Assembly (NCBI GenBank): GCA_023382265.1
Contig: JAMCPX010000008.1
Coordinates: 84,274 to 148,273, forward strand
Reading direction: 5' to 3'
DNA length: 64,000 bases
From: Deltaproteobacteria bacterium
GTDB taxonomy: Bacteria > JAMCPX01
Shown here: piece by piece, positions 2,249 to 29,917 of the stretch
Numbering within the stretch: the first letter of the stretch is position 1
Layout of the letters: every line of letters begins with the position of its first letter
Program-made: the position numbers and the translations under genes
Notes under the pieces: model-generated
Databases searched by the model: none
What the model was told of the DNA's origin: nothing
The model's input: the letters and a program-made list of their open reading frames with translations, nothing else

Positions 2249-4147
2249 TTATTTGCTGTCTGATTTAATGTTTATTGTTTTAAATCTTTTTATATAGACA
2301 TCAAGTATTGTAATAGCAGATGGAGTAATCCCGGAGATTCTTGATGCCTGACCAAGTGTTAATGGCTTGAATTTATTCAACTTTTCTTTAACTTCTGCTG
2401 ATAAGCCCGGAATAATACTAAAATTAAATTCCTCTGGTATTTTTATATCTTCTATCTTTTTAAATCGTTCCATATACTCCAGCTCTCTTTTTATATAGCC
2501 GTCGTATTTTATAGCCACTTCTATGGAATCCTTTAATATCCAGCTTGCACCCGCTAATGATGGTTCTAATCCTTCAATATGTTTCATTGTAACATTAGGC
2601 ATTTTAAGCAATTGATATAAGGTTATGGCCTCTCCCTTATCATTATACCCGGTTTGTTCAAATATAGCTTTTAATGGTTTTCCTGTTATCTTTTTTTGCT
2701 GTAGTGAGGTCATCGCTTCATTATATTGTTCCCTTTTTTCTACAAAATGCTTATAATCTGCGTCGCTTAAAAGCCCTATGTTTTTACCCATATCACTAAG
2801 CCGCATGTCCGCATTATCTTCTCTTAAAATAAGCCTGTACTCCGCCCTTGATGTAAACATCCTGTACGGCTCACTTGTTCCTTTTGTAACGAGATCATCT
2901 ATAAGTACGCCAATATAAGCTTGCTGCCTTGTGATGATCAAAGGTTCTTTATCTAAAACCTGCAAACCCGCATTAATACCTGCAACAATACCCTGCGCAG
3001 CAGCTTCCTCATAACCTGAGGTGCCATTGATCTGTCCTGCATGATAAAGCCCTTTTACAAGTTTTGTTTCGAGTGTTGGATATAGCTGTGTAGGGTTAAC
3101 AAAGTCATACTCTATTGCATACCCCGGCCTCATAATTTCTACCTGTTCAAGTCCTTTTATAGATCTGAGCATTTTTAATTGAATATCATAAGGCAGGCTT
3201 GTTGCCAGACCATTTGGATAGATTTCTTTTGTTTGGTAGCCCTCTGGCTCAAGAAATATCTGATGTCGTGGTTTGTCTTTAAATTTTACAACCTTATCTT
3301 CAACTGAAGGACAATACCTTGCCCCGGTACCCTTTATAATGCCCGTATATAGAGGAGAGCGATCCAGGCCGGATAAAATAAACGTATGCGTTTGTGCATT
3401 TGTGTACGTCATATAACATGAAACCTGCGGGTTTGTAATATACGCAGTTTTAAACGAAAACGGAATAGGCGGTTCATCCCCGGGCTGTTTTTCGAGCACT
3501 GAGAAATCTATGTTTTTTGCATCCAGTCTTGGGGTTGTTCCTGTTTTTAGTCTGCCTACCTCAAATCCAAGCTGTCTCAAACTGTCAGATATTCCTATTG
3601 AAGGAGGCTCTCCTGCCCTGCCTGCCGGGAAGCTTGTAAGCCCGATATGGATCAATCCATTTAAGAATGTTCCCGTTGTCAAGATAACTGTTTTTCCATA
3701 AAACACAAGCCCAATGGATGTTTCAACCCCTTTTATTCTACCCTGCTCTGTTATAAGCGAGATTACTGTTGCCTGTTTTAGATCAATGCCTTCCTGCTGT
3801 TCTATAATCGTTTTCATGTATGTTCTGTACATTACCCTGTCACACTGGCAGCGGTTCCCCCTTACTGCCGGGCCTTTGTTTGTGTTTAATCTTCTGAAGT
3901 GTATGCCGGCGTAATCCGATGCTATTGCCATCTCTCCACCAATCGCATCAATCTCACGAACAAGGTGACCCTTGGCCAATCCACCTATTGCAGGGTTGCA
4001 AGACATATAACCAACAGTATCAAGATTACCTGTAAGCAGTAACACCTTGCAGCCCATTTTTGCACCTGCCAGGGACGCCTCTATGCCTGCGTGGCCTGCG
4101 CCAACAACAATAACATCATAATATGTATCATAAATGATTTTTTTCAT
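2249..4147 (-). CDS. mnmG: tRNA uridine 5-carboxymethylaminomethyl modification enzyme MnmG (GidA)
   Basis: Has an FAD-binding N-terminus ([15 protein letters not shown]), is about 630 aa long, and keeps the MnmG motifs throughout. Confidence 0.95.
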
Positions 4148-4334: not shown

Positions 4335-5138
4335 TTAAATCTTTGACAAAAATGATAACATCAGGCTGTTTACCTTTTCTGGCGCTTCAAGACAGGTAAG
4401 ATGAGCCGCATCCTTTACAACCTCTACCCTTGCCCCTTTTATCTTCGCTGCCATTTTTTTTGCCTCTTCAACCGTTGTAAAAATATCTTTCTCTCCTACT
4501 ATGATCAAAACCGGACAGTCTATATTATGAAGCATTGACGTGGAATCCGATCTTTCCATCATACCCAGCGAGGCATTTGCTATTGCCCCTGGAGAAGTAC
4601 GGGATATTCCATCTCTTACAGTATGCACAATATCGGGTCTTATCTTTATGGTCGATGGCGCAAACAACTTTTCTGTCCATTCATCTGCAATCTTATCCAT
4701 CTCTCCGTTGCGCGCCCTTTGAGCCAGATTAATCCTTCCTTGTTTGCCTTGCTCAGAATCCACACCTGACCTTGTACCAAGCAGTATCATTGCCTTTACA
4801 TATGACGGGAACATCCTGTAGAATGTAAAAATAATGTACCCGCCCATTGAAATACCTGCAAACACGGCATTTTCAATGCCGAGAGTATAAAGCAGTTCCT
4901 TCAGGTCATGAGCGAACAGTTCCATAAAGTATGTACCTTCGGTGATCCCCGACTTACCGAATCCTCTCAGGTCAGGGGCTATGACTCTTGCCTTCGTACT
5001 AAGGGTCTCTATCTGCAAATCCCAGATATCCCCTGACAGGGGAAAACCATGAATAAGCATTACAGGCACACCCCTGCCTTGATCCCGATAAAACATACTG
5101 AAGCCGTTTATCTCTTTATAGGTCTCACTGCTATGCAT
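4335..5138 (-). CDS. Alpha/beta-fold hydrolase
   Basis: Shows the LIHGF oxyanion region and a GxSxG nucleophile elbow (GISMGG), and is about 267 aa long. Confidence 0.7.
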   Translation of the reverse strand: MHSSETYKEINGFSMFYRDQGRGVPVMLIHGFPLSGDIWDLQIETLSTKARVIAPDLRGFGKSGITEGTYFMELFAHDLKELLYTLGIENAVFAGISMGGYIIFTFYRMFPSYVKAMILLGTRSGVDSEQGKQGRINLAQRARNGEMDKIADEWTEKLFAPSTIKIRPDIVHTVRDGISRTSPGAIANASLGMMERSDSTSMLHNIDCPVLIIVGEKDIFTTVEEAKKMAAKIKGARVEVVKDAAHLTCLEAPEKVNSLMLSFLSKI

Positions 5139-23133: not shown

Positions 23134-23177
23134 GCATACAGCTACTTTCAATACGCAAGAGAAAATTGAGAAGTAAG

Positions 23178-23828
23178 ATGTCGTGGAATAAGGATTATGA
23201 AAAGTCGGGTAGGATATGGGGAGAAAATCCAGGAGAACTTGCAAAAGCCGCAGTCCGATATCTGAAAAAAAACAAGTCCGCCAGCGAAAGCCTTAATCTT
23301 CTGGACATTGGTTGCGGCTACGGAAGGGACGCATTCTATCTTTCGGACAATCTTCAATGCAATACTCTTGGAATAGATGTCTCGGAAAAGGCAACAGAGA
23401 TTGCAATGAGTACGGTCATAAAAACAAAAAAAAACAATATCATGTTTCAATCCATTGATTTTGCATCACTGGGAGGAGACAAATATGATATTGTGTTTGC
23501 CTCGAACGTATATCAGATCCTGCATCCGCATGAAAGGGAGGCATTCAGGGTTGCGGCAAAAAAAGCATTAAGGCCGGAAGGTCTGCTGTTCCTTGCTACC
23601 CTTTCCACAAGGGATCCAGAGCATTACGGTAAAGGCATGAAGGTTGAAGGAGAAGAAAACTCTTTTAAAGACGAGAAGTACCTCCATTTTTGTACGAAGG
23701 AAGAGCTCATGCAAGACTTCGGATTTCTGAACATAAAAGAGCTCTATGAGCAGCAGTACACCGAGCCCCGCTCAACCGGAGAAACCCACCACCACGTATC
23801 ATGGATACTGATAGGGTTTGCATCTTAA
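23178..23828 (+). CDS. Class I SAM-dependent methyltransferase
   Basis: Has motif I (LDIGCGYGRDAF) and later motifs. The ORF-track start at 23166 is a TTG, so ATG 23178 is preferred. Confidence 0.7.
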   Translation: MSWNKDYEKSGRIWGENPGELAKAAVRYLKKNKSASESLNLLDIGCGYGRDAFYLSDNLQCNTLGIDVSEKATEIAMSTVIKTKKNNIMFQSIDFASLGGDKYDIVFASNVYQILHPHEREAFRVAAKKALRPEGLLFLATLSTRDPEHYGKGMKVEGEENSFKDEKYLHFCTKEELMQDFGFLNIKELYEQQYTEPRSTGETHHHVSWILIGFAS

Positions 23829-24211
23829 CCAATGTCCAGACTTTGTCATCAAAAAACGCAATAGAAAGTTGACCATAGGATGAACAGTTCCTTGGTGAAC
23901 GATCTTGCCGTATACCTTGCAATAGTATATGAATAAAACGATGCATCTGTCCCGGTCTTCGAAATGAGCCTCGATTACAGCTTCAACGACTGGCATCCGA
24001 TCTGATTCCGGGAAACGACCTTTACCTCATCTGATATAAGAGCATGGGCCGTACCCATTCCCCTGCTGTACCGACCCTTGACCACTACCTCCCCATGATT
24101 TACACAATGGCACTGCGGGAGAAGCATGAACCCCTCACGTTCATATATGAAGGATTCCAGCACGCCTCGATCTAAAGAGGTCCTTCAAGATCGATGTATA
24201 AACCAGCATAG

Positions 24212-24379
24212 GTACAGCAGCAAATATTATCTCCTAATGCAGCTATTATACCGGACAGATTGATGAAAGAACTTAAAACTATTACTCCGGAGAAATCAAA
24301 GACCGCCTTGATTTCCGAAGCTCTGGAAGAATATATTAATAAAAAACGCAGAGAGAAATTAGTGTCCCTCAAGGGATAA
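24212..24379 (+). pseudogene. Truncated VapB-type antitoxin fragment
   Basis: The short ORF ends ...KTITPEKSKTALISEALEEYINKKRREKL. This resembles the C-terminal helix of VapB/DUF2191-type antitoxins, but the N-terminal DNA-binding part is missing. Confidence 0.4.
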
Positions 24380-24452
24380 ATCAATATAGAATACGACTGG
24401 AAAATCGAAGAGGGAAGGGAACTAATGACTGCGAAAGAAAAAGAGAAGGGAT

Positions 24453-24831
24453 ATGGCAGAAAGCATAATCGCTGACACGTGTGTCTGGATCGCATATTTC
24501 AGGGGAGAGCCGGCACTATCCAGAAAACTGGAGACCTTGAAAAAAGGGATGCCGTCTCTATTTGTGGAATTGTTTTATACTAGTTGCTCCAAGGGTTAAA
24601 GGACGAAAATGAAAAGAGAGTAATAGGTGACGCTTTCAAAGGACTCCGCTATATTGAAATGCACGAGGATACATGGAAGGGGCTGGCGTATTGACGAAAG
24701 ATATGAAGAGAACCGGTATCACACTGCCGCCATCGGATATTTTTCTCGCTCAGCTTTCAATAGAAAACAACTGCAAGATTTTCACAATAGACAGTTATTT
24801 TAAGAGAATTCCGGGAATAAATCTCTTATAA
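24453..24831 (+). pseudogene. VapC (PIN-domain) toxin gene disrupted by frameshifts
   Basis: The N-terminus MAESIIADTCVWIAYFRGE is the PIN DTSVWI motif. The frame hits a stop after ~48 aa. The PIN C-terminus (ITLPPSDIFLAQLSIENNCKIFTIDSYF) resumes in a different frame. Confidence 0.6.
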
Positions 24832-24943
24832 GTCAATGGCCACCTTGACATCGGAACAGTACGTTCCTATTCAGTGTTTCAAAAGGTATAAAGCGTATAT
24901 ACAACCCATACTCTTTCTCCTGTTAGAATGTCCCTTTTACCGT

Positions 24944-26344
24944 TTACACGCAGCAGGAAAGCCCGGATATGTCCTTGACAAACGAGAGAGCGCAGGTCTT
25001 GATCGCCTCTGAAAGTGTTGGGAATACGGGCGTTGAGTCGATCACATCGTAGATAGTGTTCTTGTTCTTTATAAGTATCATAGCCTGTGCAATCAGTTCG
25101 CCTGCATTGGGTGCGAGTATGTGGACACCGAGGATCTGGCCTGACTTCGGATGAACAGCCATCTTGATCAAACCTTCTGTTCTATTGAGGATAATCGCCT
25201 TGGGAATATTCTTTAACTCAACGCTTCTGCATGCACAGGTGTTCATCCTGTTCATCTGCTCCTGTTCTATAAGCCCCGCACCTGCAAGCTGCGGATCGGT
25301 AAAGATGGTATACGGCACGGCATCGTAATCCATCGTGAGCTTTGAGCCTGCCAATGCATTCTCAGCGGCAATACTGCCTTCCCTGCCGGCTGTTGTCTCA
25401 AGTCTGGATGGCTGGTTTATCACATCCCCAGCTGCAAACACATTTTCATTCTTTGTTGTGAGATATTGATTCACGATAACCGCATGACGCCTGTCTGTTT
25501 CGACGCCTGATTTATCAAGATCAAGGTCTTTTGTGTTTGGTGTCTTGCCGGTTGCAAGCAGTATCTCGTCACCGCTGACCTCATATTCTGTTTTGTCAAT
25601 ACGATACATTACGACCTTCTTCTTGCCCTTTTTGTATGCCCTTTTCACCTTTGCGCGGGTTTTCATTGTTATGCCTTCTTCTGTAAGCAATGATTCAAGC
25701 CTGTTGACGACCTCTTCTTCACCGGGCTGGAATATCGATGGTTGAAATTCGAGGATCGTTACCTTCGAGCCAAAGCGTGCATACATCTGGGCAAACTCAA
25801 GTCCGAGAGGGCCCGCGCCGACAATGATCAATTCCAATGGCAACACCTTTAACTTCAGGGCCCTTGTGTGTGTGATAAACCCTGTCTCTTTTATACCTTC
25901 TATAGGCGGGACGCTCGCGGTAGAGCCTGTCGCTATAATGATCTTTTTTGCACGGAAGGTTTTACCATCAGCCCTGACCTCGTCTTTTGACGTAAAAGAT
26001 GCCCTTCCCTGAAGAACGGTTACATGCTCGAGACGCTTCAGCACCTTGTCATACTTTTCTTTCCGCATGATCGCAACAAGGTCCAGCTCATGCTGGATGA
26101 CCTCCTTAAAATCAAAGGATTTCACGTTAAGCTCAATCCCCGGAATACCATGATGCCGTGCAAGATGCAATAATTCGCCTGCATACAGCAGTGCCTTCGA
26201 AGGCACGCAGCCGACATTTACACACGTGCCGCCGAGCGGCATACCGTCGTTTATCATGAGCGTTTTAGCATTAAGCTCATTTGCCCTGATTGCCGCTGCA
26301 AAACCGCCTGCACCCGCGCCTATTACAATTAAATCATAATCCAT
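24944..26344 (-). CDS. merA: Mercuric reductase MerA (core enzyme, no N-terminal HMA/NmerA domain)
   Basis: Has an FAD-binding N-terminus, the redox-active GGTCVNVGCVPSK motif, and a C-terminal ...KDISGLSCCV carrying the MerA-specific vicinal Cys pair. It lies in a higher-GC segment. Confidence 0.8.
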   Translation of the reverse strand: MDYDLIVIGAGAGGFAAAIRANELNAKTLMINDGMPLGGTCVNVGCVPSKALLYAGELLHLARHHGIPGIELNVKSFDFKEVIQHELDLVAIMRKEKYDKVLKRLEHVTVLQGRASFTSKDEVRADGKTFRAKKIIIATGSTASVPPIEGIKETGFITHTRALKLKVLPLELIIVGAGPLGLEFAQMYARFGSKVTILEFQPSIFQPGEEEVVNRLESLLTEEGITMKTRAKVKRAYKKGKKKVVMYRIDKTEYEVSGDEILLATGKTPNTKDLDLDKSGVETDRRHAVIVNQYLTTKNENVFAAGDVINQPSRLETTAGREGSIAAENALAGSKLTMDYDAVPYTIFTDPQLAGAGLIEQEQMNRMNTCACRSVELKNIPKAIILNRTEGLIKMAVHPKSGQILGVHILAPNAGELIAQAMILIKNKNTIYDVIDSTPVFPTLSEAIKTCALSFVKDISGLSCCV

Positions 26345-26522
26345 ATTGCCTCCTTTTAAAGAGTAGAAAGTGCTCTTCAGAGCGCTCTCGACTTGTAGTA
26401 TGTATTAATACTTTAGCTGTTTTTCAGTAACTATGCAAATCTCGTCGATATGCAGTACACTTATCATTTTTGTCTTCTTTCAAAATTCTTTGTCTCTGTA
26501 TAGTCCTCATTGTTTTTATTCA

Positions 26523-26672
26523 TCGCTCTTCACCCTCCATTGCCTCAAGGATGTGGCATTCGCTTACAGGACCCTTTCCTATGCATGCCAGGATCAACTT
26601 TGCCAGCGCCTTCTTCATCCTCTGGAGCGTCCGGATCTTTGCTTCGATGTCTTCTATTTTTGCTTCCGTGAG
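26523..26672 (-). pseudogene. MerR-family regulator C-terminal fragment (dimerisation helix plus metal-binding Cys loop)
   Basis: LTEAKIEDIEAKIRTLQRMKKALAKLILACIGKGPVSECHILEAMEGEER* matches the MerR coiled-coil and Cys-X8-Cys metal loop. No HTH-encoding N-terminus was found in any frame upstream. It sits in frame directly after the TGA of the small membrane ORF. Confidence 0.55.
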
Positions 26673-26945
26673 TCAGTGTACTGTGCCAAAGAGAGCCCTG
26701 TAACCTACAGAAGCCCTGCCTATCCCCATACTCCATAAAAATGCATAGATGACGGCAAAGACAATGCCCAACATGAAATGCATCATTAAGCCAAGTGGTA
26801 TAACTCCTTCCTTCTTGAATATGGAACCGGGTAATCCCACAATTTCCATCTTCGTCATACCCATCTTGGATGCCGCAACCATTACCATAGACATTACAAT
26901 TGTTTTGACTATGCCGGCAACAACTGCTCCTATTATGTTTATCAT
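26673..26945 (-). CDS. Small hydrophobic membrane protein (unknown)
   Basis: Is 90 aa with about 3 TM segments, no Cys pairs (so not MerT/MerP) and unknown function. It may be a gene remnant. Confidence 0.35.
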   Translation of the reverse strand: MINIIGAVVAGIVKTIVMSMVMVAASKMGMTKMEIVGLPGSIFKKEGVIPLGLMMHFMLGIVFAVIYAFLWSMGIGRASVGYRALFGTVH

Positions 26946-27136
26946 ATGCTACCTCTTTATCGCCGTGCAGTTCCTTTATCTCTTCAGGATACCCCATCCT
27001 GAACAGGTTTCCCATATACAACCATTGAAGTTGCAGCTCCGGCGGACATTGAACCCGCGGCCTCGCCGTTTTCCTTTACACCCTGTTTGTGCCGCACAAG
27101 CATGTTGATCAAAGATTGTAGTGAATTAACTGGTCT

Positions 27137-29917
27137 CTATTTCTTAACAACCTTGGATAGGCAAGATTTCTTATGCAGTTTTTTGCAGCATATTGGAACA
27201 GCAAGAAAGAGCAGCAGGAAGAGTGCATCCCATGGATCATAGTTCTGAGTATAAGATATACTACAAGAAAAGCCCCTGTCAGGATAGAGCTTGCCTTGAA
27301 CAGGGTTTCTAAATACACCGCCCGAGATCACAAGTGCATAAGGTTGATCATTAAGCGGAGTCATGCCTTTTGGTATATTGTAGCCTTTCACTATAGCTTT
27401 ATATATGCCAACCTGCGGATGCGCAATTTCTATTTGTTGTATATTGTTTGTGTGATCGGGTTGATTAAGGCCATTTGGATAATAAATCCGGCTATCAGGT
27501 GATGCAATGGTAACATCCAATTGATTAACAATATCTCTGCTGCTTCCAGGAGAAGCAGGATAATCGCTCCATACAAGTGTCGTAATAAGGGGATCACCGT
27601 TAAGCACCTCAAATTGAAGTACTCGGTGTGCCCCTGTTGCTAAACCATTACCTTCTTTATAGTCGAATACGTGTATATGCCAGTTTTGTGAAGGTATTAA
27701 AAGTCTTGTTAGATCAATCCTTCCCCAGCCTTCAATATTGTTTGGCCTATACGGAACTTCAAGGTATTTGCCTGTTCCGTACTGCCCCGGATAAATATCC
27801 TTTGCAGTGTTTATCATCACGGCCTTAACAAGTGCGGCAGAAGGGGATGCATACCCGTTTTTTAATAACCACTGTCTTACAATGGCAGCACTACCAGCTG
27901 CAACCGGAGTTGCCATACTTGTTCCACCAAGAAACATGTACCTTTGATCCTCTAATGTTGTAGAGGATATACCCCAGAATGATTGCGAGCCCCAGCCACC
28001 TGTAACCGTATCGATTGATATATCATCAATCATAACATAATCAGATTTATTGCCGGAATCGGACACAGTAAGTCTTAACCCAAACCCATTAAGATTATCT
28101 GAGCCTGTATCGGTAAAATATGATAAAATGGGGTAGCTTGCATTATACCATCCTGCTGTTGATGTAAAAGTATCAAGGAGAATCCATGCACTCCGTGAAG
28201 GATCAAAGACCTCAAAACTCAATACCCCGGATAAAAGCCTTGTATTAACATAAAAATTAAGTTGTGCATGATGTGTTATGCTTGCAATGGAAAGTGATGT
28301 AAAAAACTGTGCATAAGATAAAACGGGAGATGTCATTGAGGTGATACCCAGCGCATAAGTGCTTTTATACCCATTAGGATAAATCATAAATCCTTGAACT
28401 GTACCTGTTATTGAAAATCCCTGAAGTCCGTTTTCAAAATCATCGGTATAGAAAATAGATTGAGACTTTGCCGACAGGATAAAAGTTCCAGGTGCTACAA
28501 GATCGGGTTTTATTCTGCCGTCATTAGCAGGACCCCTGCTTGAAAATGCCGCCATTCCATCCGGATTGTTGGCAAGCAAATCAGTGCTTATCGGCGGGAC
28601 AGGAAAACTATTGGGCCATGCAATGCCGTATGTTAAAGGTATGGAAGGCCTGAAGCTCTCCGTCGCACCAATGGTAAGACAATCCTTTGCCAGTGCAGGT
28701 GAAGAAATGCTTGATAGATCCACCACGCCGTCATTGTCAGCATCCGTTCCGTCATTGCCGGATGCAAATAAAATTAGCATGTCGGGGTGTTCCCATATAA
28801 ATTTATCAAGACTCCATGCAAGAATATCATAGGATATGATATTGGAGGTGCCCCAGCTGTCGCTGTGTATACGTGGTGCGAGAGTGTCGTTGTATGCCTG
28901 ATTAAATAAATTACCGATTACTGCAGGAATACCGTTAAAAATTCCCTGCCTATTCATTACATCTTGAAAAACAAGTTTATTGACTCCGTATGCGATCCCG
29001 TTATGGGAGATTCCAGCAAAGGGTGTTTGCTGATCATAACCGAGTATAGTATCAGCTACGTGTGTTCCATGCCCTACATCATCCTGGAAACTACCCGTAT
29101 CGGGATAACCATCTGCATATATGCTTACTTCTTTATTTAAAAACGCGGGATGAAAGTCTGTACCTGTTATATAACCGTAAAATCTATTATCCGCAGAATC
29201 ATAATTTAAGCCCGCATTACCCGTATCAAGACCGGTATCAGCTATTGCAACCGCCTGACCCGCGCCGTTATAACCGTTGATGTTTTGCTGTATAACGTCT
29301 GTAGAGAGTCTTACACCGGCAATCCATGATGCTACATCGTTAAACAATACAAAATGCGGATACGGTTGAATCCATCTAATATCGTTTGATCCTGCAAGGC
29401 TTATTATCTCATTACGTGTTAGTTTTGCATGTATAATACTATTATTTTTAGAGTGTTCAGTACTAATTACTGTCCCGCCTTCAATCATAATATCATTTAC
29501 GAGCTTCTCTCCCGATATTTGAGGGAAGCCAAGTATAAGCACATTGTAAGGAGTAGAAATATCATGGATGCGCATCATTGCAGATAATGTTGATTCGATT
29601 TTATATGGAGGTAAATATTGCCATACTCCTGTTAACCGGTTTTTTATAGAATTTAAAGTTTCCCTATTAGCTAACACCAAAAAGCTGTTTTCAGGAATAT
29701 AACCTGCAATGATATTACCGTTCTGCTTTAGAATGGTAATATCATTAGCGTATACGTGATCTTTAAATTGAATAATATACGGTTGCTTTTGATCAGACAG
29801 TGTAACATAATTTTTGTAATTCACAAGATATTTGTTGAATATAACCGGCTTTGCTTCAGCCCCGCAGCCTGTAAGGAGAAATGAAAACAAAAACCATAAA
29901 CCTACACGTATTAACAT
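27137..29917 (-). CDS. Subtilisin-like serine protease (peptidase S8) lipoprotein with large C-terminal extension and C-terminal hydrophobic/basic tail
   Basis: Has a lipoprotein signal (LLTGC), the catalytic regions DTG.., HGTHVADTILG and GTSMATPVAAG, about 450 aa of downstream beta-rich domains, and a C-terminus ...ALFLLLFLAVPICCKKLHKKSCLSKVVKK. Confidence 0.85.
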   Translation of the reverse strand: MLIRVGLWFLFSFLLTGCGAEAKPVIFNKYLVNYKNYVTLSDQKQPYIIQFKDHVYANDITILKQNGNIIAGYIPENSFLVLANRETLNSIKNRLTGVWQYLPPYKIESTLSAMMRIHDISTPYNVLILGFPQISGEKLVNDIMIEGGTVISTEHSKNNSIIHAKLTRNEIISLAGSNDIRWIQPYPHFVLFNDVASWIAGVRLSTDVIQQNINGYNGAGQAVAIADTGLDTGNAGLNYDSADNRFYGYITGTDFHPAFLNKEVSIYADGYPDTGSFQDDVGHGTHVADTILGYDQQTPFAGISHNGIAYGVNKLVFQDVMNRQGIFNGIPAVIGNLFNQAYNDTLAPRIHSDSWGTSNIISYDILAWSLDKFIWEHPDMLILFASGNDGTDADNDGVVDLSSISSPALAKDCLTIGATESFRPSIPLTYGIAWPNSFPVPPISTDLLANNPDGMAAFSSRGPANDGRIKPDLVAPGTFILSAKSQSIFYTDDFENGLQGFSITGTVQGFMIYPNGYKSTYALGITSMTSPVLSYAQFFTSLSIASITHHAQLNFYVNTRLLSGVLSFEVFDPSRSAWILLDTFTSTAGWYNASYPILSYFTDTGSDNLNGFGLRLTVSDSGNKSDYVMIDDISIDTVTGGWGSQSFWGISSTTLEDQRYMFLGGTSMATPVAAGSAAIVRQWLLKNGYASPSAALVKAVMINTAKDIYPGQYGTGKYLEVPYRPNNIEGWGRIDLTRLLIPSQNWHIHVFDYKEGNGLATGAHRVLQFEVLNGDPLITTLVWSDYPASPGSSRDIVNQLDVTIASPDSRIYYPNGLNQPDHTNNIQQIEIAHPQVGIYKAIVKGYNIPKGMTPLNDQPYALVISGGVFRNPVQGKLYPDRGFSCSISYTQNYDPWDALFLLLFLAVPICCKKLHKKSCLSKVVKK

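Follow-up and report, generated by a model that had tools for sequence, protein, structure and literature searches.

A MerR-like reading frame behind a stop codon

In the window, by which we mean the whole stretch of 64,000 nucleotides (64 kb) that was analysed, a mercuric reductase gene (merA) is preceded on the same strand by a 90-aa membrane-protein ORF ending in TGA, and the codons directly after this TGA resemble, in the same frame, the metal-binding end of the mercury regulator MerR. Is this an unusual sensor, or what is left of a broken operon? The features that bear on the question are as follows.

24260-24379, plus strand: vapB-like short ORF (VapB_antitoxin, E 4.6e-4)
24453-24831, plus strand: vapC/PIN gene broken by frameshifts (PIN PF01850 positions 1-118 of 120, E 1.2e-12)
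24944-26344, minus strand: merA for a core mercuric reductase of 466 aa, intact and without NmerA
26345-26519, minus strand: spacer of 175 nt from the stop of the merR remnant to the merA start
26520-26666, minus strand: merR remnant of 48 codons and a stop codon, corresponding to residues 89-135 of a complete MerR of 135 aa
26510-26884, minus strand: 375 nt deleted in the sister strain L175 (GCA_021793435.1)
26533-26534, minus strand: point at which the L003 contig, from another sample, diverges and runs into the end of a Mu-like prophage
26667-26672, minus strand: breakpoint codons CTC ACG, DUF-derived to ~26669 and merR-derived from ~26667/26666
26675-26673, minus strand: TGA stop, equivalent to TGG (Trp91), invariant in intact DUF6789 homologues
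26945-26673, minus strand: 90-aa ORF including its stop, ending in TGA
26676-26945, minus strand: what remains of a DUF6789/DUF1440 gene of the 'MGMPKMD' membrane-protein type, codons 1-90 of ~151

The merA gene is intact

The merA product matched the NCBIfam model TIGR02053 over positions 1-464 of 465 with 505 bits (cutoff 454.45), and its Pfam domains are Pyr_redox_2 and Pyr_redox_dim, with no Pfam match to an HMA/NmerA domain. The start codon of the ORF is the earliest one that follows an upstream stop. The redox-active CxxxxC of the FAD domain (CVNVGC, within GGTCVNVGCVPSK) and the vicinal Cys pair of the C-terminus (...GLSCCV) are both present and are kept in relatives. The original prediction of a complete MerA with an LSCC pair and no NmerA domain is borne out. 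The best 120 MerA homologues listed are all 460-478 aa long, many of them from Patescibacteria. An exact look-up of the MerA sequence found no record, since the copy in public databases departs from it at 2 aa. The dN/dS of merA against its relatives is 0.11-0.15, and two of the 81 positions that are invariant in 119 homologues are changed (L35M and T359I). Judged by these comparisons, merA alone is kept under purifying selection and is a predicted Hg(II) reductase. The nearest relatives (L089, L090 and L091, 87-92% identity) also carry a lone merA, without merR, merT or merP.

On its other side, merA adjoins a decayed toxin-antitoxin pair (24260-24831) in convergent orientation, the PIN match of the vapC gene being that of a joined three-frame translation.

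Only the C-terminal part of merR is present

The 50 in-frame codons after the TGA (26672-26523, with the stop at 26522-26520) read LTEAKIEDIEAKIRTLQRMKKALAKLILACIGKGPVSECHILEAMEGEER. The merR remnant within them matched the NCBIfam models of ZntR (E 6e-8, positions 86-131 of 131, 32.9 bits against a cutoff of 167.95), CueR (E 1.4e-6) and MerR (TIGR02051, E 8.8e-5, positions 81-123 of 124, 22.7 bits against a cutoff of 150.85), and the Pfam MerR-DNA-bind match is limited to positions 38-65 of 65, that is, the last 26-28 positions. Using the intact MerR of locus L009 as a tblastn query, residues 89-135 matched the remnant with 74% identity (E about 1e-18); at the nucleotide level, the remnant is 79.7% identical to L009 merR over 148 nt. 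The assignment of these codons to the MerR C-terminus, first made from the sequence alone, therefore has statistical support.

The remnant covers the C-terminal half of the coiled coil and the metal-binding loop. It has neither the HTH nor the first of the three metal-binding Cys; in L009 merR this Cys precedes the breakpoint position by 8 codons. Among Cys81, Cys116 and Cys125 in L009 numbering, which we take to correspond to Cys82, Cys117 and Cys126 of Tn21/Tn501, only the last two are present, and the Pro that follows the last Cys invariantly in 11 MerR relatives is His (Cys-Pro to Cys-His). Eight intact MerR queries matched this spot by residues ~77-135 only and gave no other meaningful E-value in the 64 kb, and their HTH part (residues 1-76) had no match in any frame of the window, in agreement with the earlier claim that no HTH exists. 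One match of a MerR-HTH query at 27013-27069 on the plus strand was weak (E 0.043, 19 aa, Pro/Arg-rich) and was judged spurious. The remnant does not constitute an intact MerR ORF with a start codon, and its frame is entered only from behind a TGA. An internal ATG at 26618 would give a 32-aa peptide (MKKALAK...) with two Cys; as read from the sequence, a GAGG abuts this ATG directly, which is poor spacing. The dN/dS of the remnant against L009 is 0.19, an uninformative value over just 47 codons with a dS of 0.72.

Transport genes, promoter and spacer

Searches by tblastn for merT and merP (or merC/E/F) gave no match in the 64-kb window, and the reported absence of merT and merP thus holds. Both genes are present in L009 and L092. 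In L009, whose MerA is 81% identical, the order is merR-merT-merP-merA, and upstream of merR there are TTGACT, a 19-nt spacer, TTATAT and the dyad CTGTAgtatagTACAG, which together form a MerR-type promoter/operator. The promoter motif of the L009/L092/L091 type is absent from the entire window at up to 3 mismatches, and no promoter-like site with a 19-20-nt spacer lies upstream of merA. A merR may act in trans, the search having covered 64 kb of the genome.

The last ~20 nt of the spacer upstream of merA (the RBS region) are homologous to the L009 merP-merA junction by blastn. The other ~155 nt (26364-26518) take the place of merT-merP in L009 and have no relation to those genes, and 143 nt of the spacer are kept almost unchanged in strain L175. 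Neither other copies of the 155-nt spacer part nor repeats or IS ends flanking the locus were found in the window or the fetched loci. There were no Rfam families in 23800-27300 at E <= 1, RNA structure in the merA leader was not significant (z -0.66), and the scan for sigma-70 promoters and terminators gave fewer or no more matches than shuffled sequence, with nothing convincing from the protease gene to merA. The palindrome GTATTAATAC upstream of merA was considered as a repeated operator and rejected, as it is not enriched in the window.

The membrane-protein ORF is a truncated DUF6789 gene

The 'small membrane ORF' of the original prediction was correctly read as 90 aa followed by TGA, but it is not a standalone ORF: it belongs to a ~151-aa DUF6789/DUF1440 gene of which only the 5' 60% is left. 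Its match to Pfam DUF6789 spans positions 3-72 of 144 (20.9 bits, cutoff 27.1). The intact homologues P0002-P0006 are 151-166 aa long (four of them ~151 aa; the C-terminus of P0005 is aberrant) and run ~60 aa past the end of the remnant, whose 90 residues are 84% identical to the 151-aa P0002. At the nucleotide level, identity to the DUF gene of L001 is ~90% up to the breakpoint. Where intact homologues carry ...GTVHWLIVG..., the window has GTVH-TGA-L, and the TGA is therefore a mutated Trp codon. The earlier reading had overlooked this origin of the TGA, two codons before the breakpoint. With 10 of the 41 long ORFs of the window ending in TGA, this codon is a regular stop in the genome.

The dN/dS of the DUF remnant against the nearest intact copy is 0.37, compared with 0.07-0.09 among intact copies, and nearly all of the excess dN falls on the window branch (dN to outgroups of 0.152 and 0.136, while the values for L001 are 0.087 and 0.078). 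The remnant is altered at 6 of 31 invariant positions, including G14K, P26S, P31T, L39P and G83R (intact close homologues are altered at 0-1), and these changes put a Lys and a Pro inside predicted membrane segments. These substitution patterns are those of a pseudogene. No significant remnant of a YHS gene precedes the 90-aa ORF, the window has no Crp-type site like that of YHS-DUF operons, and the 3' half of the DUF gene was not found downstream anywhere in the 64-kb window. L163, considered as a copy cut at the same residue, was rejected, being a high-GC copy with a frameshift and in other surroundings; the methyltransferase of the window shares generic SAM-methyltransferase similarity only with the one after the L001 DUF gene and was not accepted as its ortholog.

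The junction joins two broken genes

Comparing the window at the nucleotide level with both the L001 DUF gene and L009 merR placed the breakpoint within ~3 nt. The two reading frames are in phase across it, which has a chance expectation of 1 in 3 and is also what a functional fusion would require. Each half has separate intact homologues (a 151-aa DUF protein and MerR of 132-178 aa), and DUF homologues continue past the Trp codon as a membrane protein, not as MerR. Since only complementary halves of DUF6789 and MerR are present and both have intact homologues elsewhere as separate proteins, the junction is best read as a deletional joint of two broken genes, which supports the earlier suggestion that merR was truncated by deletion.

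The same junction occurs identically in three further assemblies from other samples (L002, L003 and L004). In L003 a Mu-like prophage lies inside the merR tail; the window itself does not contain this phage end. The deletion in L175 takes DUF codons ~21-90, all of the merR remnant and 10 nt past its stop, leaving merA with a 143-nt leader. In both strains the 466-codon frame of merA is open, and the two products differ at 2 aa.

A second suggestion of the original prediction was an unusual arrangement, with read-through or an alternative start giving a sensor-only peptide. Spelled out, read-through of the TGA (or Sec/Trp insertion) would give a membrane-anchored chimera, or the ATG at 26618 would give a 32-aa sensor-only or Hg-buffering peptide. 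The common frame of both halves, the retention of two of the three Hg-binding Cys with part of the coiled coil, and the recurrence of the junction in four assemblies would agree with such a function, but they are met by evidence of several kinds. No SECIS-like hairpin follows the TGA, the RNA being less structured than shuffled controls (z +1.16), and relatives have no extended DUF-MerR frame; both results speak against programmed recoding, as does the ordinary use of TGA as a stop here. No protein spanning both halves was found in a set of 5.8 billion proteins, where the maximum query coverage was 75%. The start at the internal ATG suffers from the abutting GAGG, the peptide has lost the first Cys and the Pro after the last one, the DUF part shows radical changes and a relaxed dN/dS, and the whole stretch has been deleted in L175 and interrupted by a prophage in another sample. 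We therefore regard a functional arrangement as very improbable. A chimera made by assembly or binning is a scarcely conceivable source of the junction: the L002 and L004 contigs, from other samples, do break within or near the stretch, but independent assemblies of at least three other samples gave the identical junction, and coexisting alleles (the L175 deletion and the L003 prophage) account for the contig breaks.

Probable decay of a mer operon

The locus is very probably a mer operon in ordinary deletional decay, in which merA stands alone and the remnants are non-functional pseudogene fragments. The ancestor would have been a co-transcribed merR-(merT-merP)-merA operon of the L009 type adjoining a DUF6789/DUF1440 gene. 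One rearrangement, most simply a deletion, would have joined DUF codon ~92 to merR codon ~88-89 and taken the 3' end of the DUF gene together with the promoter/operator of the mer genes and, from MerR, the HTH and the first metal-binding Cys; beside the joint, the codon for Trp91 would have become the present TGA, and merT and merP would also have been lost, with ~155 nt of unrelated DNA in their place. The ancestral order DUF-merR-merA was not found in 80 merA loci or 80 DUF loci (the order in L092 is merA-merR-merT-merP-YHS-DUF), so a single local deletion is what we infer rather than observe, and more than one event is needed because the DUF remnant has also lost the upstream YHS gene and the Crp-type site. 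In its present state, merA is predicted to be free of cis-encoded, Hg(II)-dependent MerR control, which bears on Hg responsiveness inferred from metagenomes. Its transcription might come from read-through of same-strand upstream genes, or else a promoter that escaped recognition may lie in the 143 nt shared by both strains; any Hg(II) would need to arrive at MerA by a route other than MerT and MerP.

Two other histories were weighed against deletional decay of a resident operon. An already truncated merR-merA fragment could have arrived by horizontal transfer and entered a resident DUF6789 gene by illegitimate recombination. The merA relatives of 87-92% identity sit in wholly different gene surroundings, so that merA moves; the GC content of merA is ~47%, while much of the flanking DNA has ~40-43%; the DNA on both sides of the DUF remnant is unrelated to the usual YHS/Crp context; and the locus adjoins a decayed toxin-antitoxin pair and is a site of phage insertion. 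Such a transfer is nevertheless unlikely, for the missing DUF 3' half would require a deletion anyway, the linkage of DUF6789 to mer genes elsewhere makes a prior adjacency plausible, and the block has no insertion-sequence ends, integrase or direct repeats on its flanks. The decay could also extend to merA, which would then be unexpressed with disabling mutations still to come. This would suit the missing transporter and regulator and the lack of a recognised promoter or operator upstream, as well as an omega of ~0.22 on the window branch against ~0.08 on the L089 branch (derived from distances) and the two changes at invariant residues, a count in the top 6% of 120 sequences. We consider a dying merA improbable: no stop interrupts its full frame in either strain, its omega lies far under 1, it keeps every catalytic Cys and scores above the equivalog cutoff, the second deletion in L175 ended 143 nt before the gene, and a lone merA is the norm among the closest relatives. 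Deletional decay that has spared merA remains the reading we prefer.

Linkage of YHS-DUF6789 to mer loci

The DUF6789/DUF1440 ('MGMPKMD') protein is a Cys-free, Met/His-rich membrane protein whose intact gene usually lies downstream of a small YHS-domain gene and a Crp-type site. The YHS-DUF pair ends the mer operon of L092, and DUF genes lie beside merA, merE, merB-like, merT or merR genes in L140, L126, L122, L160, L165, L172 and L028; they often adjoin genes for glutaredoxin-thioredoxin-reductase fusions. No paper tying DUF1440 or DUF6789 to merA or mercury was found in the literature. The recurrent linkage is a modest new lead, and the truncated ORF might possibly, as a tentative suggestion, be the relic of an unrecognised accessory to mercury and soft-metal resistance, in which case the window would record a module lost along with merR, merT and merP.

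Comparison with known systems

The MerR metal-binding-domain peptides engineered in the Summers laboratory are said to consist of the coiled coil and the Cys loop, expressed without the HTH. The remnant resembles them in part, having the C-terminal coiled coil and the loop with the equivalents of Cys117 and Cys126, but it has no equivalent of Cys82 for a three-Cys Hg site and no credible start, and is natural debris. It is not a new kind of sensor. The upstream half differs from intact DUF6789/DUF1440 genes (Pfam PF20587/PF07274) in being cut after residue 90 of ~151 and in having no YHS partner and no Crp-type site. The 'hypothetical protein' P0001 (90 aa, in public MAGs) and the MerR-like tail should accordingly be read as debris, and neither a regulator nor a new small protein should be counted here.

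The merR-first, same-strand operon of the L009 type is taken to be the 'merR-convergent' arrangement of Boyd & Barkay 2012 (PMC3466566). The window shares with the L009 operon an orthologous merA and merR tail (81% and 74% aa identity) in the same order and on the same strand, and differs from it in having no promoter/operator, HTH, first Cys, merT or merP and in the joining of the merR tail to a DUF fragment. As a core MerA without NmerA, the product is typical in its 466 aa, its start at the FAD motif and its C-terminal Cys pair. L092 and L140 carry MerA of the NmerA type, which belongs to a different clade.

Early lineages tend to have MerA alone (PMC8261052), and in Aquificales, according to the passage of PMC3466566 that reports Freedman et al. 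2012, merA at merA-only loci without regulators is not further induced by Hg, which suggests constitutive expression. A lone core merA without merR, merT or merP is what such loci share with the window, L089, L090, L091 and L175, in which it is likely a functional end state. Unlike primitive merA-only loci, the window has reached its minimal state secondarily, because remnants of merR are still present. The merRTPA operon of L009, the window allele and the L175 allele form a natural series, in which a merA-only locus can arise by reduction, and which warns surveys against treating minimal mer loci as primitive.

Organization of the mer Region

The features of the region, in positions of the window, are as follows.

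29917-27137, minus: S8 protease gene
190 nt, minus: gap between the S8 protease gene and the 90-aa ORF
26945-26673, minus: 90-aa ORF, terminated by TGA
ending at 26520, minus: 50 extra codons in frame past the TGA
175 nt, minus: spacer between the MerR-tail codons and merA
26344-24944, minus: merA
24260-24831, plus, convergent with merA: vapB-like short ORF, then a vapC/PIN gene split into three frames
23166-23828, plus, convergent with merA, with the vapBC remnant in between: SAM-dependent methyltransferase gene

The feature upstream of merA is real but ordinary: a mer operon eroded around a core merA that was kept, leaving two pseudogene stubs behind. As predicted, merA is complete (505 bits against NCBIfam TIGR02053, cutoff 454.45, with the model matched end to end), and its product carries the CVNVGC redox centre and a C-terminal Cys pair; an HMA/NmerA domain was looked for in the product and is absent. 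Core-only MerA is normal for this clade, because each of the 120 best homologues listed has a length of 460-478 aa. The closest relatives of the gene (L089 and L090 with 91-92% identity, L091 with 87%) are lone merA genes in three distinct neighbourhoods, and merR, merT and merP were not found in these fetched loci; therefore, the reduced merA-only state is common in the clade.

Both the window strain and its sister strain (L175) keep an open, full-length merA frame. The dN/dS of merA against relatives is 0.11-0.15, and the protein departs from only 2 of 81 invariant positions, both by conservative changes. Omega estimated from pairwise distances is ~0.22 on the window branch vs. ~0.08 on the L089 branch. 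These values indicate that merA is somewhat relaxed, yet clearly still under constraint.

Beside merA, the joined translation of the split vapC/PIN gene matches PIN positions 1-118 of 120 (E 1.2e-12) and represents a second pseudogene, which is consistent with a patch in general decay. The methyltransferase gene shows weak matches of TPMT and TehB (tellurite-resistance) type, and a link to metalloid detoxification is possible. Between the S8 protease gene and the 90-aa ORF lies a 39-aa ORF (MLVRHKQGVKENGEAAGSMSAGAATSMVVYGKPVQDGVS, 26984-27103, minus strand), annotated as a gene in public assemblies, with no Pfam match and no detectable kinship to the YHS gene found upstream of intact DUF6789/DUF1440 genes.

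Two Gene Fragments Joined Upstream of merA

The codons past the TGA match the NCBIfam models ZntR (E 6e-8, positions 86-131 of 131) and MerR TIGR02051 (E 8.8e-5), and are 74% identical to residues 89-135 of an intact MerR (E ~1e-18), so that the proposed MerR C-terminus is statistically solid. The 64 kb contain neither an HTH-coding sequence nor merT or merP. With merA complete, the MerR tail supported and these elements absent, the observation behind the original prediction is confirmed in all particulars. The "small membrane ORF" it described does exist, and is itself a gene fragment, which had been missed: it matches only positions 3-72 of 144 of the DUF6789 model, and its database relatives are 151-166 aa long (four of five ~151 aa). 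Where these relatives read ...ALFGTVHWLIVGLIMG..., the window reads ...ALFGTVH-TGA-LTEAKIEDIEAK.

The breakpoint was mapped by nucleotide-level comparison of the window with an intact DUF6789/DUF1440 gene (L001) and an intact merR (L009). The window is ~90% identical to the former up to the joint and 79.7% identical to the latter beyond it, which places the breakpoint between ~26669 and 26666. The codons are CAC TGA CTC ACG GAA GCA AAA ATA... in the window, CAC TGG CTT A... in the DUF gene and ...GCT GAA GCA AAG ATA... in merR. This three-way comparison identifies the TGA as the Trp91 codon of the DUF gene, changed from G to A two codons ahead of the joint. The two frames are in phase at the joint, for which the chance expectation is 1 in 3. 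The entire wHTH of MerR and its first metal-binding Cys (8 codons upstream of the joint in L009) were lost, and the two distal metal-binding Cys are kept. The residue after the last Cys, a Pro invariant in 11 MerR relatives, is His in the window.

Of the two readings offered originally, a truncated merR proved right, and a sensor-only peptide or read-through product is not supported. An internal ATG lies at 26618, directly abutted by GAGG. TGA is an ordinary stop codon in this genome, no SECIS-like element was found past it, and shuffled sequence shows more structure than this region does; no protein spanning the DUF and MerR halves was found among 5.8 billion proteins. The dN/dS of the DUF remnant is 0.37 against the closest intact copy, compared with 0.07-0.09 among intact copies. 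With L092 and L093 as outgroups, the excess of non-synonymous change falls almost entirely on the window branch (dN 0.152 and 0.136 vs. 0.087 and 0.078). The remnant breaks 6 of 31 positions invariant in six intact homologues (G14K, T19S, P26S, P31T, L39P, G83R), while close intact homologues break 0-1 each. Judged from these sequence comparisons, neither fragment appears to be functional.

Alleles of the Locus in Other Samples

L175 (GCA_021793435.1) belongs to the same species, with flanks ~99.5% identical and a MerA differing by 2 aa. It lacks window positions 26884-26510, a 375-nt deletion that covers DUF codons ~21-90 and the entire merR remnant and spares merA and 143 nt of its leader. 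In an assembly from another sample (L003), the sequence departs from the window after 26534 (breakpoint 26533/26534) and enters the end of a Mu-like transposable prophage (L003:523-5383), with repeated terminal AGTTTGCGAWTTTT motifs followed by Phage_tail_APC, Mu Gp48, Baseplate_J, GP46 and Mu Gp45 genes; this prophage end is not present in the window. The locus is thus polymorphic in ways that disregard the two fragments, which also speaks against their being functional, and other contigs break at this stretch because of these co-existing alleles.

In the compared stretch of L175 (3275-3500), the short DUF 5' piece that is left keeps the ancestral GGA (Gly14) and ACC CTG (Thr19 Leu20) of intact homologues, where the window has AAA and TCT ATG. 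Beside the deletion edge there are 5 differences in 22 nt, vs. 2 in ~420 nt of the flanks; a recombination tract, a multi-nucleotide mutation or a MAG consensus effect are possible causes.

DUF6789 Genes Near mer Genes

The membrane ORF has intact relatives that encode Met/His-rich proteins without Cys ("MGMPKMD"), and these genes usually have a small YHS-domain gene upstream and a conserved TGTAAtctaccTTACA site beside a Crp-family regulator gene. This palindrome, with Crp/Fnr-type half-site spacing, lies in a conserved ~45-nt element (L001:2563-2585, L092:326-348, L093 ~3170-3215) upstream of YHS-DUF operons, which adjoins the regulator gene in L001, lies upstream of the mer promoter in L092 and is absent from the window.

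In L092 (490-4135), merA-merR-merT-merP-YHS-DUF form one same-strand block closed by the YHS-DUF pair. DUF homologues also adjoin merA and merE-thioredoxin, with a MerR-family gene (L140, 599-4588), merT-merA (L028, 4294-9372), a MerT-HMA fusion (L165, 4995-7187), MerR and an oxidoreductase (L172), and, in L126 (39-7433), a gene ending ...LSCCAE (MerA C-terminus) and an EamA-like gene, with a putative merB-like gene, judged by eye, as a further neighbour. Glutaredoxin-thioredoxin-reductase fusion genes adjoin them in L114, L120 and L126. The MerA-like matches near the homologues in L122 and L160 reach only 34-35%, and the L122 gene lacks the C-terminal CC. The linkage is recurrent, not obligatory, because mer genes were not seen in most of 80 JGI DUF loci. 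No paper linking DUF6789/DUF1440 with mercury was found in the literature.

Origin of the Joint and Expression of merA

In L009, a MAG whose MerA is 81% identical to that of the window, merR (135 aa), merT (Pfam MerT), merP (HMA) and merA are all on one strand. Upstream of merR (3677-3706) are TTGACT, a 19-nt spacer holding the dyad CTGTAgtatagTACAG, and TTATAT, an architecture typical of MerR-type promoters. The motif recurs before merA in L092 (431-460), and a near-identical copy, differing in a flanking base, precedes merA in L091 (~4945-4975), where the 5 kb fetched upstream contain no merR. Across the three loci the cassette reads TTGACT, 19 nt with dyad CTGKAGTATAGT..., TTATMT, and stands ahead of the leading mer gene of each locus (merR in L009, merA in L092 and L091). 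This suggests that the promoter travels with rearranged mer modules. The motif is absent from the whole window, where ~155 nt without similarity to any fetched sequence stand in place of merT-merP, and homology to L009 restarts ~20 nt ahead of the merA start.

A deletion between two once-adjacent genes may have created the joint, or a foreign mer fragment may have inserted into the DUF gene; none of 160 related loci showed the exact ancestral order. Because the DUF remnant lacks both its usual YHS partner and the Crp-type site, at least two to three events are needed under either deletion or insertion.

Neither a merR in cis nor a mer operator accompanies merA in the window. The gene is most likely expressed regardless of Hg(II), and transcription would either start at an unrecognised promoter within the leader that was kept or read through from same-strand genes upstream; a search of 27137-26344 for terminator-like sites on the minus strand found none. 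In the spacer (26345-26519, minus strand), the ~70 nt that precede the merA RBS contain two perfect 10-bp palindromes, GTATTAATAC and AGAGCGCTCT, within the part of the leader common to both strains; GTATTAATAC is not enriched elsewhere within the window.

Regulator-less merA loci are known in Aquificales, where Hg did not further induce merA, suggesting constitutive expression (PMC3466566), and MerA alone is often present in early lineages (PMC8261052). In contrast to these, the minimal state in the window is demonstrably secondary.
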